Notes under the pieces: model-generated
What the model was told of the DNA's origin: nothing
Database searches by the model: none
The model's input: the letters and a program-made list of their open reading frames with translations, nothing else
Virus record (IMG/VR): IMGVR_UViG_3300038425_000083
Location: 1 to 64,000 of that record
Length of the DNA stretch: 64,000 nucleotides
DNA from: a virus
Direction: 5' to 3' (one strand)
Translations under genes and position numbers: made by a program
Part shown: in pieces, positions 12,481-61,775 of the stretch
Position numbering within the stretch: the first letter of the stretch is position 1
Layout: each line of letters starts with the position of its first letter

Positions 12481-12852
12481 ATGAGACAAGCTGAAATAAC
12501 TACAATAGACGAAGAGTTCAGAAGTAGACATCCTGGCCCAGTAGTAGATGGCTTAGAGAAGTCTAGCGAATCTGCTAAGAAAGCCTGGCAAACAAGACGT
12601 AGAGGATTTAAGGGTATACGAAAAGTTATCCCAAGAGTCGGGAGAACAAAAGCGGAACAAGAGTTCTTGAAGAAAGAGAACAAGGGAATCCAAAAGCTTT
12701 ATGCCGATGTCTATGGTAAAAAGAAAGCAAGCAAGATCCTTCAACACGTCAAGGAGGCTACTCGGCAAGGTTTGATAAAGCCTGGCATGAAGAAGACTCC
12801 GAGCAAATGGAAAGAGTATCTAAAGAAACGTGAGATAGAAGCAGGCAACTAA
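12481..12852 (+). CDS. tagged basic protein (putative internal head protein)
   Basis: ITTIDEEF leader and LEK-SSESAKKAWQTRR tag. Confidence 0.6.
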   Translation: MRQAEITTIDEEFRSRHPGPVVDGLEKSSESAKKAWQTRRRGFKGIRKVIPRVGRTKAEQEFLKKENKGIQKLYADVYGKKKASKILQHVKEATRQGLIKPGMKKTPSKWKEYLKKREIEAGN

Positions 12853-13664
12853 TGAGTTGGTGCGACCTTAGTGGATTGAGATTTGGCAAAGTAACAGTCG
12901 AAAACATGGCAGGCTCCACTACGAAGAGTTTGTTATGGAGATGTATATGTGATTGTGGCAGCGAAATTGTAGTAGAGACAAATGCCCTCACTAATACTTT
13001 AAGTTGTGGACATTGTAAACCTGGCATAAGAAAGAGAGCAAAGACTAAACCTAATTATAGACATCATTGCAACATAAACTTTGTAGATAATCCCAACGAG
13101 GCAACCGACCTAACAGAAGGGAGACGTGCTGAATATAATCCGAAATACCAGTATGAGGGTCGATGGAAAGCCGACGTTGAACGTTATGAGAGGAGACATG
13201 AAATGATTTGTGAAAGATGCGGATGTGAACTGAAGATGGGTCTTGGTGATTTAACAAGAGGACAAGTTGTTGAACTTCTCGAGCAGGCCGTTCTGGATAA
13301 GAAGATAGATGATATCAAATTGTTCCGGTATGAAGGAAGTCGTGGAGCTTGGCCTTTTACCAAAGAGGAGGAAGCAATCTTAAGAAGTTATCTGCCTGGC
13401 TTCGAAGCCTATGAGTCAGGGGTTAGAAGAGTTATAAGAACAGATTCAGATCAACCCCCAGGCAAGAGAAAGTTTGTTAGAAAAGTTAGAACCAAAGATC
13501 GTAAGATGGAAGAACCTCCTGATCTTGAAGAGTTTGGGAAGAGTCTAAGAAACTTTGGAAGAGTTTCTGGTATAACAGGACGAGAAGGTCTTGACCTTAA
13601 TGATGTAACGATTGGAAGAGACGAGTATGACCAAACTCCAAGGGACGATCCGGCAAACTTTTAA
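12852..13664 (+). CDS. fusion of an HNH/AP2-associated N-terminal Cys domain with a domain paralogous to 15006..15410; contains RRVIR
   Basis: DLSGLRFGKVTV...WRCICDCG...SCG N-terminus. LTRGQVVELLEQAVLD...ILRSY aligns with LTKRSAIDLLEKAVMD...ILLSY. Confidence 0.55.
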   Translation: MSWCDLSGLRFGKVTVENMAGSTTKSLLWRCICDCGSEIVVETNALTNTLSCGHCKPGIRKRAKTKPNYRHHCNINFVDNPNEATDLTEGRRAEYNPKYQYEGRWKADVERYERRHEMICERCGCELKMGLGDLTRGQVVELLEQAVLDKKIDDIKLFRYEGSRGAWPFTKEEEAILRSYLPGFEAYESGVRRVIRTDSDQPPGKRKFVRKVRTKDRKMEEPPDLEEFGKSLRNFGRVSGITGREGLDLNDVTIGRDEYDQTPRDDPANF

Positions 13665-61000: not shown

Positions 61001-61775
61001 TGAAGGAACAAGTTCTATTCACATATACCGTGGGGTTCAACTTCATGAGTATGGAACCAGTTTTGAAGAACAGTTTGCCCACGAAGTGGGACATTTGGTA
61101 GCACGAAAAGTGTTTGGAAGCATAGAAGCTGAGAAGTGGGGCGATGTTATTAAAGGAGAGAATCCTGTTTCTCATAGAGGTAGAGAAAATGCTGCAGAAG
61201 ATTTTGCAGAAACTTATTCTCTTTATCTTAATGATGAATTAAATAAGGATGATTATCCACAGAGATATAAAGCAATAAAGAATATAGTAGATAGGGCAAG
61301 GAAGCCCAGAAAAGTTTCAAAATTAAAATGGGAAGTCAAAGATTTGAAAGATGAGTTTGAAGAGAAGACTCCTTTGCTTCATACTACTTATGACAGATTA
61401 GCTGCAGGTGGGAAAGCTAAATATACTTCGAAGCCAAGTCCTGAAGCTGAAGCCGCTTTGAAAAAATTATTTGGGAAGGGTATGGTGATAGATATGGTAA
61501 AATCCAGAAAGAAGATAGTTGAAATGAAAAAATCCAGACTCGAGAATAAGTTTGTGCCTCACAAGATAGATGGAAAAGTTTCATGGGTTAAAGTTAAACA
61601 TGGAGGCATGCTTGTTAAGAGTGCTAAACTTATCCAAGTCGGACAAGAGATTTTAGCCAAGTCTGGTTTAGCTACAATAACTGCGGTCGGGAAAGATGGA
61701 GTTACGGCAAGAACATCTAAAGGAGATAAAATACTTCTCCTTATGAAAGATGTTCTACCTTATGTAAGAGGATAA
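55083..61775 (+). CDS. MuF (head morphogenesis) polyvalent protein: MuF, GHKL ATPase, HExxH, ART-like, CCA-adding/HD, ParB-like, zincin, SH3-like
   Basis: MuF: RAYLISRTE, KW...DERTC..C, PPIHPRCRC. GHKL: ECLQNSLDA, DNGIGM, GGFGIA. HEFTH. ART-like: FHGT...GVYF. CCA: GGCVRD, DIDL, RRDLTINA, EDSLRVLR, HPEGDVWEH, CHD. GRHRF. HEVGH...EDFAE. Confidence 0.9.
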   Translation: MPRVRFEPLKITTLYEEKVAQSVKDRYKSHINRESLRLVSNITDDMRDRIAGLMHEGIDEGRSVSATASTLLKTGLDKGVFRSARRRAYLISRTELHRARQQGAFDLYRANHIDLVKWIAIGDERTCDTCAPRNNHVYRLSEIEGDLPPIHPRCRCRVVPSDFQLEISVRRDRRGKIMETRISPTPQNYKYYVSLDRKPRRRVKKSLEKAVSVRAFTRYVPGRGFQRYKQFQRDVAVIDKPVPRDFSYEIANSGEDVANKIEERREGKVRATYAVNAVRAWNMEAKNKYPNTNYLGDVGVRECLQNSLDAVTESLEKGEIKRGKIEIELTPHKEKYSVKDNGIGMSDTDIRDKFLALYGTGKDIKGRFGGFGIAKAVILAPSESSHWQLKTRDNFFDDKMASANDQIKAIPKIQGTQIDVWAGEDIVSEDAKKYVETTEVPKNIGIRFKWALDDWETLKNPFLKLKSEVSHTTAKGSEITMSFFPRPPSEYRNHMILRLVDKKTGAKLTQAINPIFGDFKGALVVDIETSATPGSGGYPLTDSRMGLKWGEVQDFVNTEISQRTREKKSAERVGQQEKWLDLPEVPGWKDTLERIKTDTGYAYLKDTIDKIWQKDFVSQHLKGIVSTDIGEQPFTSLENIKILRDVGFKGSDGGTVAQAKLMLAFESLAQMYSQTLQKAGMHCPLFGFHALLSKATSTGVRLAHFSRQEHTLGLDIKSFPKSAFASPVSLALEMVNTIQHEFTHNWRREHDEGFTSQLGQIQTVTAPLFNRALEVAGALLGKDTRITIDTPQGIEKIKRSHIWTIGEKPKQPEWRAELFQLYKEIGGKSGATAVYKIAEKYNIPEKRVRMVLAGYKAAQSRKEKKDVTKSITESSVGFRGPERTSHPRFVIQLDKRLPDESRDRSQWADSRIDAEAGTGRLGLEGRSGRRGLLVIEKARSHKYLRKIPRGSGRYEYIYQRPDVGFHGTTSKFLETILKEGLRSSKDTGVALYSGESQFGPKAKRYGVYFAKTPERAFGIAEVATKKFGGKPVIFIAKVDPKKAESDEDFAVVLGDLFRDISRDKPPLLTGNEIRQRLKDYKLSYGETYYIPQDTQYRLNTLSDGKLERLYDNWRKGGSKAIDEELTSKDSWKIFGSAAFPGDKPEDIRAAIFWDWAEHKYTRIGSPFEKKLDKALRRLNLREVTKLPGAHVVENPAFIKALEEFGFFATSTGLLKSVMGEDLKKARSYVRFRHGKYEHVKGWSGKPRLFDLSSEDKIHRYLLDASSPEIEKALQVVQEIHAVGGQTLFIGGCVRDALLGKKSKDIDLEVYNVKPEEVRAILDRAGKVDQVGKSFGVFKLSFPGMEAIDVAIPRRESKTGKGHKGFMVDHDPSMTFKEAAGRRDLTINALAYNPIEDKIIDEYGGLQDIKDKILRATNPETFGEDSLRVLRVMRFAAQLEFSPDFNLAWLCRQIDLTDLPKERIFGEVAGMLLKAKRPSIGLRLIHILGINKILPELDELKGTEQDEKWHPEGDVWEHTLLAVDEAAKMKKQLANNQDRLVYMLGVLCHDMGKPETTDVNEEGRTISHGHDEMGAKVAQDFLGRLTDETDILERVEGLVRHHMRPTFFFHDKVPDSAIRRLAKKVDIPMLLMVSAADKSGRGDKDIDLSAERWMMRKFKNLKLAHPETLEPKVMGRHLIPLGIKPGPEMGRILDKIYNAQLEGKFETTDAGLEYANQQGWLKTEEDTVIKAVPVKKLITSRGKTFLHTYYENRSGLGPGFFAGAEPLVVNKMSFKQSEDQKRWGEEVVLVDVSKFDAEWSKDEGFYISSSGKNEISNRREKFQEFLKTGKPIIMPSVSVRDIGSRGLIGFTNGRHRFAVLRDMGFTEIPVSVDAKSAKMAKELFKAPSLKEKLEAQNYWWKTVAGGIESKYEGVKIVYAGKKTSEGFTHTYADEQFQDAIDMIPEEHRKLIDSVILEPGSVLGEDGKAEFGRVFEGTSSIHIYRGVQLHEYGTSFEEQFAHEVGHLVARKVFGSIEAEKWGDVIKGENPVSHRGRENAAEDFAETYSLYLNDELNKDDYPQRYKAIKNIVDRARKPRKVSKLKWEVKDLKDEFEEKTPLLHTTYDRLAAGGKAKYTSKPSPEAEAALKKLFGKGMVIDMVKSRKKIVEMKKSRLENKFVPHKIDGKVSWVKVKHGGMLVKSAKLIQVGQEILAKSGLATITAVGKDGVTARTSKGDKILLLMKDVLPYVRG
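57679..57885 (+). CDS. candidate nested out-of-frame gene inside MuF (68 aa)
   Basis: AAGGAG 7 nt upstream of the ATG; helical protein-like sequence with LQK-A and LMK-A. Confidence 0.45.
   Translation: MSLNPLQKAALDSEAPREQVIQGLLSNLINDCLMKAGIDPNGPIAGSMRKLGQDVWDLRDALEEEGYW

Follow-up and report, generated by a model that had tools for sequence, protein, structure and literature searches.

The first 64,000 nucleotides of the virus record IMGVR_UViG_3300038425_000083 from IMG/VR (the window, i.e., the whole stretch analysed) encode the head region of an uncultured peat-soil phage, in which a short peptide signal, h-x-K↓[SA] (h, hydrophobic; the arrow marks the presumed cut), recurs at the ends of N-terminal leaders and at the joints of giant proteins. 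The favoured explanation, which is held with moderate confidence, is that this phage builds a Herelleviridae-type head and that the cleavage rule of its assemblin-fold protease marks cargo proteins for packaging, cutting and release with the DNA. About 20 proteins, together with the joints in four giants, are probably loaded into the capsid and cut there. What the sequences show directly is the motifs, how far they exceed chance, where they are conserved and how they vary with the protease family; cleavage, packaging and ejection are inferred from these.

The window is part of a single viral contig of 76,068 nt, on which the genes for the protease, the scaffold and the major capsid protein lie just past the window end (locus L001, whose coordinates are genome coordinates minus 62000). 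With its counterparts in Bacillus SPO1-like and CP-51-like phages, the capsid protein shares 42–47% identity, and its relation to those of Staphylococcus K-like phages is more distant; the head was therefore assigned to the Herelleviridae type; capsid, portal and protease are all of this type. The head genes are dispersed over 58 kb, with the MuF gene shortly upstream of the protease, scaffold and capsid genes, and the identities previously given to terL (9528), the portal (38013) and MuF (55083) were confirmed.

Leaders and joints that share one signal

An initial annotation, made from the DNA letters, had proposed that about 20 unrelated open reading frames (ORFs) between terL and MuF begin with a short leader ending in K-S or K-A, and that the same motif recurs inside the giant ORFs. 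All 16 leaders listed there were found in place, in frame and with plausible starts, as were all six internal copies (FVIFEK↓S, NVILEK↓S, FVIIEK↓A, YVILEK↓A, LVIEK↓A and SLEK↓A). For ORF 12481, no K-[SA] directly follows ITTIDEEF as had been implied, and the K↓S lies 13 residues further on (LEK↓SSES). The strict pattern [VIL][IVL][ILFV][EKDL]K[SA] occurs 14 times in the ORFs of positions 12481–61775 against 0.7 ± 0.8 (maximum 4) in 300 shuffles, far above chance. The accessory genes do lack the motif, with no strict match in positions 1–12480 and the relaxed h-x-K-[SA] at its chance level there (9 found, 9.0 expected). The strict junction is equally absent downstream of 61776, and it is thus confined to 12.5–61.8 kb of the 76-kb contig. 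Many genes between terL and MuF are without the signal, e.g., those for membrane proteins at 27.5–29 kb and the radical-SAM gene at 43214.

The 16 N-terminal leaders are shared by otherwise unrelated, non-structural proteins, as T4-type leaders are, and fall into two classes, hVILEK↓S (class 1) and h-T-h-D-E-E-F-x-K↓S (class 2). Class 1 resembles, by eye, the N-terminal propeptide of the protease itself, and class 2 resembles the N-terminal propeptides of the scaffold and the capsid protein (EITEDELKK↓S and TWEEVAELNK↓A). A class-2-like leader, NVTTLDEEFEK↓A, is also carried by a small ORF of L019, the closest relative (capsid protein 75% identical; MuF segments 45–61% identical). The internal joints are often composite, of the form ...YLKTGhhK↓S-hhVIhEK↓[SA]-tag, in which a leader-like element stands between two sites.

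The description of the carriers as unrelated holds for only part of them, since ORFs 23192, 49968 and 30620 have a paralogous domain of ~300 aa in common and ORFs 15413 and 23192 share ~200 aa. Such paralogy, with the capacity of recombination to spread repeats, would fit a reading in which the shared N-termini and joints are functionless leftovers of duplication and recombination among paralogues. This is, however, very improbable, because leaders and tags also sit on bodies without detectable similarity, the pattern is absent from the remainder of the genome, its conservation in L019 is limited to the joints, and the peptide has persisted although its synonymous sites are close to random. 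In the leaders, identical residues share a codon in 42% of cases, compared with 38% expected from genome codon usage (an expectation computed over tag positions); the codons thus vary freely, which argues that the peptide, rather than the DNA, is conserved. The copies of the tag described below are 66% identical as DNA and share codons at 48% of identical residues vs. the same 38%; this low identity and near-random synonymous usage indicate that the copies are old and held by selection at the peptide level.

The probable cleavage rule of the head protease

The initial annotation had also advised inspecting the structural proteins encoded just outside the window, and capsid, scaffold and protease were indeed found to carry the same h-x-K↓[SA] site. 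The capsid protein possesses exactly one h-x-K-[SA] in 470 residues, AELNK26↓A27, and L-x-K-[AS] is invariant at this position in five capsid proteins, i.e., that of this phage and those of SPO1, phiSA_BS2 (Twortvirinae), Bacteroides phage DAC19 and Chryseobacterium phage MA9V-3. For A511, the initial annotation had named a Lys-Ser cleavage of the capsid protein, and the deposited Staphylococcus Kayvirus chains are consistent with such a cut in the family: the 463-aa precursor 5lii_P and the 439-aa chain 9row_B (also 9rox and 9roz) lie 24 N-terminal residues apart, and the first residue of 9row_B is the Ser after VVK, at a position that aligns with K26↓A27. As in this phage, the capsid proteins of SPO1, phiSA_BS2 and L019 contain one site each.

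The scaffold, by contrast with the single capsid site, contains many sites. Observed vs. expected numbers of h-x-K-[SA] are 9 vs. 1.3 in the scaffold of this phage, 11 vs. 1.15 in SPO1, 7 vs. 1.18 in phiSA_BS2 and 9 vs. 0.96 in L019 (p ≤ 0.001 in all four), and the protease gene holds 8 vs. 2.7. When, as a control, each of the 400 possible P1-P1′ pairs is counted behind a hydrophobic P3, K-S ranks first (27 vs. 2.5, 10.8-fold), and K-A is also enriched (9 vs. 2.0). Most likely, the prohead protease cuts after the Lys in hydrophobic-x-K↓[S/A], as judged from these comparisons.

The protease matches phrog_1028 with E = 4.5e-39. An AlphaFold model based on 27 homologues shows a confident core at aa 26–165 (pLDDT > 90), and Foldseek matches this predicted structure to T4 gp21 and to the assemblins of herpesviruses. 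Two residues presumed to be catalytic, His68 and Ser124, do not vary among the 27 sequences. K165↓S, with an invariant Lys and a Ser that is the family consensus, closes the core, and a disordered stretch follows. Within this stretch, aa 246–283 (L001:2936-3049) are 60% identical to capsid aa 28–65 (L001:5154-5267), the N-arm right after the capsid cut site; this N-arm copy is also present in the proteases of SPO1 (L017) and L019, and it may be how the protease co-assembles into the shell. The canonical C-terminus of the family ends with APILAK346↓S, behind which the protease of this phage carries the tag introduced in the next section and an extra helical domain (aa 432–514). In the L019 protease, the joint (LLFLVK↓A) and the extra domain (41% identical) are both present, and a hairpin tag occupies the slot between them. 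This swap between orthologues shows the joint and the tag to be separate elements and the tags to be interchangeable.

Tags that follow the junction

The K-[SA] end of the leaders is real, but in most cases it forms the first two residues of a longer element that the initial annotation had missed, a tag of ~18 residues with the consensus SSEGAKKAWETRRxGGSH (the AKKAW tag). A profile finds 17 copies, all in real ORFs on the + strand: seven proteins carry the tag at the N-terminus, the ORFs of 1007, 1170 (four copies), 281 and 272 aa carry it internally, and one copy is in the protease gene. K-[ST] directly precedes it in 14 cases. Half of the strict junctions (7 of 14) have no AKKAW tag behind them; here the junction is followed by a HKY...G.Y.Y.Y motif (ORF 21226 and MuF aa 938) or by unrelated sequence, and a hairpin-like motif, V.PFTR..GK...V..F.R, follows it at MuF aa 210, 1225 and 1730 and in ORFs 15413, 30620 and 49968. 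The cleavage half of the earlier interpretation is well supported by comparative evidence, its targeting, packaging and injection steps are conjectural, and the interchangeable tags after K↓[SA] were not part of it. Relatives in other assemblies carry the same parts: P0016 has a leader of the ORF 12481 type fused straight to the tag and P0002 carries the leader and tag of ORF 26919 on a different body.

According to the favoured explanation, the precursors would co-assemble into the procapsid with scaffold and protease, the single-domain cargo starting with a short propeptide that ends in the cut site. Once active, the protease would digest the scaffold, trim the capsid protein, remove the leaders and split the modules at h-x-K↓[SA], such that each freed unit would begin with one of three interchangeable basic tags (AKKAW helix, HKY hairpin or V.PFTR hairpin). 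The tagged basic units would remain in the head and exit with the DNA, and the partner of the tags could be the capsid interior, the scaffold, an exosite of the protease or the DNA.

Several observations weigh against this explanation. Relaxed h-x-K-[SA] is short, and Lys-rich proteins match it by chance, with ~52 matches expected in the region; each cleavage in this phage is inferred; and K346↓S falls within a predicted long helix of the AlphaFold model, with no obvious loop. Because K-S makes up the first two residues of the commonest tag, junction and tag are inseparable in 14 of the 17 copies. L019 has no AKKAW tag in its whole 102-kb record, and the tag is therefore dispensable for this head type. 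The generic form AAKKAWETRR occurs in DNA-binding contexts, scoring as NUMOD3 above the Pfam cut-off in L005 and ending a clamp-loader-like protein in L010, and the tag could thus be a nucleic-acid-binding module unrelated to packaging. In addition, the tag-bearing genome G009 follows no clear P1 rule.

These points feed an alternative in which the giants act intact as polyvalent proteins, the tags are NUMOD3-type nucleic-acid-binding linkers, K-S is a helix N-cap and no cutting takes place. The tiny proteins P0018, P0021, P0028 and P0029, which are made wholly of tandem tag copies, also suggest an intrinsic binding function, and the tag is like NUMOD3 (PF07460) in having a short Ser-x-x-basic-basic-x-aromatic/aliphatic-x-x-basic helix followed by Gly; with its basic amphipathic helix and this likeness, the tag may bind DNA. 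However, the context is that of head-assembly genes rather than nucleases, and none of 15 tags matches NUMOD3, even at E ≤ 10. An uncut linker would also leave the N-terminal leaders of 7–18 residues without a role, and it does not account for the junctions that lack an AKKAW tag, for K↓[SA] preceding three different tags, for the junction kept while the orthologous tag is swapped, or for the residue before the tag tracking the protease family and the scaffold site type (K vs. N, see below). The alternative is accordingly considered unlikely. A role of the tag in assembly or processing is favoured because the tag lies in or beside the protease and portal genes of four independent phages, and because the L019 protease lacks the AKKAW tag just as its cargo does.

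Another rival keeps the cutting and changes the enzyme, namely to autoproteolysis by the MuF zincin or to a C39 peptidase (46581–47321) cutting after the Gly-Gly of the tag (RRxGG↓SH). Metallopeptidase domains have been proposed to process polyvalent proteins such as P1 DdrB (PMC5512222), the MuF giant contains HExxH-type regions with weak WLM and ATLF matches, and the region has genes for both a C39 and a papain-like peptidase. In an alignment of 15 tag copies, most show GG two residues past the basic pair, the first Gly being invariant. This reading is improbable, since h-x-K↓[SA] is common to the capsid and scaffold proteins of SPO1, phiSA_BS2 and L019, which are matured by the prohead protease. 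Moreover, the tag misfits the hydrophobic spacing of double-glycine leaders (by eye), leader-only proteins have no GG, and most tagged proteins have no zincin domain.

The giant proteins and the candidate cargo

In each of the four giants, of 1007, 1170, 610 and 2230 aa, the site links a series of enzyme modules. The 2230-aa MuF giant has 21 h-x-K-[SA] sites vs. 8.1 expected and, in the manner of polyvalent proteins, combines MuF, a GHKL ATPase and CCA-adding/HD domains, with weak zincin matches. The sites at its module boundaries, K209, K1224, K1729, K2140 and K2150, are kept at aligned positions in L019, and the intradomain K1271, K1332 and K1473 are not. The earlier polyprotein idea gains support from this difference and from P0011, a stand-alone gene equal to segment 1 of ORF 23192, which has its own leader and ends at the joint. 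Segment 2 of the same ORF gave a weak LPD1 match below the cut-off (E = 0.031).

The tagged proteins are basic, with pI values of 8.5–10.3. Recognisable cargo modules are the core of a type IB topoisomerase (TopoIB), a GNAT acetyltransferase, a GHKL ATPase, a CCA-adding enzyme with HD domain, a Kyano_Gp96-like domain and zinc ribbons; zincin and ADP-ribosyltransferase-fold families gave weak, sub-threshold matches only. Pfam and PHROG scans of the cargo turned up no T4 families. Beyond the leaders, the C-terminal ~50 residues of the scaffold are copied in two further proteins (ORFs 12852 and 14976, Table 1), and the copies are also conserved against the L019 scaffold; they may offer a second, scaffold-mimic route into the procapsid.

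MuF aa 1225–1729 (window 58752–60269) form a complete CCA-adding enzyme (PolyA_pol head + HD + tRNA_NucTran2_2), which is 61% identical in L019. This module suggests a tRNA repair function that could be delivered by the virion. A TopoIB domain also ends P0007, an unrelated tag-bearing giant.

The tag and the protease family in other phages

A profile search of 1.84 billion representative proteins recovered the tag in the form GTSEGAxK[GA]WETR[RK]xGG, repeated 2–6 times in giant proteins that carry ART-PolyVal, ADP-ribosyltransferase, zeta-toxin, TopoIB/SNF2 or LigT domains. The residues ahead of the tag are constant within each protein and differ by lineage (LAK[SA]G, LLLDG, h-x-N-[SA]-G and IQAYG). 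Three unrelated IMG/VR phages, G008 (locus L095), G010 (L105) and G007 (L107), have a phrog_328 protease and the tag GTSEGAxKGWETRR after h-x-N; G006 (high GC) was left out of this set. In their scaffold-position ORF or protease-scaffold fusion, h-x-N occurs 10 times vs. 3.4 expected in G008 (p = 0.0003), 11 vs. 3.1 in G010 and 8 vs. 1.8 in G007. In G008 (60–80 kb), the protease and its 761-aa neighbour both start with the leader MFYKLFN↓ (FYKLFN↓), and the protease ORF of G007 itself contains the tag. The choice of K or N before the tag parallels the type of site in the scaffold, and the pre-tag residue thus tracks the protease family.

A broader and more tentative proposal, drawn from these sequences, is that the tag family, SEGAxK[AG]WETR[RK]xGG and the hairpin alternatives to it, acts behind a lineage-specific protease site as a general, portable capsid address with which many unrelated tailed phages load and release polyvalent effector modules, in which case the cut residue could co-evolve with the enzyme, K with phrog_1028 and N with phrog_328.

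Other searches were negative within their scope. The tag matched no model in Pfam, NCBIfam or the PDB, and its core strings (KAWETRR and variants) were not found in the searchable literature. Around the capsid genes of 53 relatives (±10 kb), the tag profile gave no match; a DNA pattern for KAWxTR[RK]xGGSH gave none in IMG/VR and two chance matches in the JGI metagenomes; and with the tag-bearing protein of 182 aa as query, tblastn found no match among 50,697 phage records. Searches for related loci with the protease, P0006 and P0032 found none. A candidate with 17 apparent stretches, P0009, was rejected as an unrelated repeat protein, i.e., a false positive.

Comparison with known systems

The prohead protease of T4 recognises the motif L/I-x-E. 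T4 thus cuts after Glu, unlike the rule h-x-K↓[S/A] proposed here, and the signal in this phage additionally joins the modules of giants and precedes a second element, the tag, which T4 is without. Also unlike T4, the head is of the Herelleviridae type, and no sequence relation to the T4 internal proteins was seen. The likenesses lie in the arrangement. T4 proteins are directed to the core by a leader of ~10 aa, which gp21 cleaves (PMC9958956). As with IPI-III and Alt, the leaders here are short and end in a motif that matches the rule expected for the prohead protease, the cargo is basic, and the protease is predicted to have the gp21 fold. The T4 cargo is dispensable for assembly, resides in the head and is injected (IPI), and its scaffold is digested at many copies of the motif, as is predicted for this phage.

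In phiKZ, 201phi2-1 and SPN3US, many head proteins shed propeptides at one consensus motif, some of them with several cuts, through gp175/gp245, and the giant-phage protease also removes its own C-terminal propeptide (PMC10052503). The conserved sites after the core (K165↓S) and ahead of the C-terminal extension (K346↓S) of the protease described here are similar. However, the propeptides of the phiKZ group are mostly 111–254 residues long, the site there follows Glu, and no repeated tag or chain of enzyme modules is described for them.

Polyvalent proteins (Iyer, Burroughs, Anand, de Souza and Aravind 2017; PMC5512222) include the head-packaged, proteolytically processed DdrB and DarA of P1 and phage members among late virion genes; they share with the giants described here unrelated effector domains, a location among head genes and an N-terminal MuF. 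Where embedded metallopeptidases are proposed there, the joints here match the rule expected for the prohead protease and carry a recurrent tag. Among the passages of that paper retrieved by a term search, linkers are not mentioned and no conserved inter-domain cut site or tag is described. For the Herelleviridae capsids (A511, K/812 and the SPO1 group), the single N-terminal cut motif L-x-K↓[SA]-h-x-x-G-[YH] is kept in the capsid protein of this phage, but in the precedents found the rule is described for the capsid protein only, and its proposed use on some twenty cargo proteins and between domains is the new part. Four elements are new: an SPO1-type head whose candidate cargo follows the Lys-Ser/Ala rule, modules chained by this rule, exchangeable tags and the co-variation with the protease family.

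How phages choose the non-structural proteins that are loaded into capsids has been worked out in detail for very few phages, above all for T4 and in part for phiKZ/SPN3US and P1, and the processing of huge polyvalent proteins into active pieces is still a proposal. The locus offers a testable rule for the medically relevant SPO1/K/A511 head group, which includes therapeutic phages, and this rule predicts exact neo-N-termini for ~40 sites. The co-variation in unrelated phages suggests a general principle. If the portable address exists, it would be an undescribed and widespread packaging code that would explain the processing of polyvalent proteins, and the tags could be reused to load chosen foreign proteins into phage heads.

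Coordinates and neighbouring genes

Table 1. Features of the head region (window coordinates unless marked genome; tag stands for the AKKAW tag unless another is named)
Feature	Position	Strand	Description
terL	9528-11171		confirmed by family scans
ORF 12481 (123 aa)	12481-12615	+	class 2 leader EITTIDEEF...GLEK↓S, then tag
ORF 12852, aa 131-181, HNH-like protein	13242-13394	+	copy of scaffold C-terminal ~50 residues, 53% identity
ORF 13976-14821	14192-14260	+	internal junction ADLAK↓T + tag
ORF 14976, aa 12-58, 144-aa protein	15009-15149	+	copy of scaffold C-terminal ~50 residues, 48% identity
1007-aa polyprotein candidate (ORF 15413)	15413-18436	+	leader MEYVIIEK↓S + tag (15413-15490)
1007-aa ORF, internal	15830-15901		HVIIEK↓S + tag
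1007-aa ORF, internal	17111-17128		FVIIEK↓A + basic stretch
1007-aa ORF, internal	17906-17960		weak tag after ELKK↓A
1007-aa ORF, internal	18239-18280		half tag
ORF 21226	21226-21345	+	class 2 leader VISIGDLYK↓A, then HKY...G.Y.Y.Y tag; 52% identical to MuF aa 937-963
ORF 22124	22124-22162	+	class 2 leader VIQTIDEFIK↓S
ORF 22471	22471-22566	+	class 2 leader VISLDEEFEK↓S + tag; C-terminal part matches Pfam Kyano_Gp96
ORF 23192, 1170-aa polyprotein candidate	23192-26704	+	four tags, after K36, K184, K495 and K1043
ORF 23192, two composite joints			K↓S-LFVIFEK↓S and K↓S-LLFNVILEK↓S
ORF 23192, third segment (aa 866-1003)	25787-26200		type IB topoisomerase core between two tags
ORF 26919 (182 aa)	26919-26996	+	leader YYVILEK↓S + tag
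ORF 30620 (731 aa)	30620-30649	+	leader MLFNVIDLGK↓S; internal joint YLKTGIVK↓S + hairpin tag at aa 530
ORF 32857	32857-32976	+	class 2 leader FSVDELLK↓A; tag 9 residues on
ORF 35515 (71 aa)	35515-35562	+	leader ...EYYVILEK↓S; gene call uncertain, a 73-aa ORF overlaps in another frame
ORF 36520	36520-37005	+	leader VRTLDEIKK↓S; internal class-2-like TTIDDEFDELAK↓T + tag (36916-37005)
Portal protein (PF04860)	38013-39683	+	its two h-x-K↓[SA] sites, K34 and K48, lie close to the N-terminus
ORF 40545 (489 aa)	40545-40634	+	leader LLFHVIDLQK↓S + tag; relative P0008 with same leader and tag
ORF 45259 (440 aa)	45259-45312	+	leader ...SYIILEK↓A, no AKKAW tag
ORF 49306 (177 aa)	49306-49332	+	leader MYKFVILEK↓S, no tag
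ORF 49820 (55 aa)	49820-49858	+	leader ...NYVILKK↓A, no tag
ORF 49968 (610 aa)	49968-51800	+	leader MRLVILK↓S + tag (49968-50042)
ORF 49968, internal	51000-51090		composite joint YLKTGIVK↓S-YVILEK↓A + hairpin tag; GNAT domain downstream
ORF 53785 (54 aa, zinc-ribbon-like)	53785-53823	+	leader ...HKFVILKK↓S
MuF polyvalent protein, 2230 aa	55083-61775	+	MuF PF04233 at aa 50-158
MuF, sites between Pfam domains			K209 (55707), K937 (57891), K1224 (58752), K1729 (60267), K1884 (60732), K2140/K2150 (61500)
MuF, tags			hairpin tags after K209, K1224 and K1729; HKY tag after K937
Head maturation protease, 515 aa, phrog_1028	genome 64201-65748		beyond window end
Scaffold	genome 66280-66975		beyond window end
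Major capsid protein, phrog_752	genome 67073-68485		beyond window end

The GC content is ~39%, and nearly every gene is on the + strand. No tail genes are present on the contig, which is therefore a fragment; where they would be expected after the head genes, a heptosyltransferase-family glycosyltransferase (679 aa) and three ORFs are found (genome 71192–75775; L001:9192-13775). A 179-kb contig is on record for one protein of this phage (P0001). Between 2017 and 2020, the phage turns up repeatedly in peat and wetland metagenomes. Over ORF 23192, contigs from four non-source peat or wetland runs match the window exactly, showing neither variants nor joints, and the population in public runs is thus clonal.

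Between 43214 and 49313, a lysine-2,3-aminomutase-like radical SAM protein, the leader-bearing 440-aa protein, the C39 peptidase and an AstE/M14-like carboxypeptidase stand in a row that looks like a peptide- or amino-acid-modification cluster within the head region. Just ahead of it (42546–43214), a 222-aa ORF has GYSG-type collagen-like repeats that match the repeats of a 1189-aa ORF in L019. A papain-family (C1) peptidase (52792–53655) and two calcineurin-like metallophosphoesterases (19270–19974 and 62654–63562) are also found among the head genes, and ORF 62654 is 70% identical in L019. Near the start of the window, a 406-aa ORF (1106–2326) starting with ...GANFGDEGKG resembles, by eye, adenylosuccinate synthetase, and it would then be an auxiliary metabolic gene.

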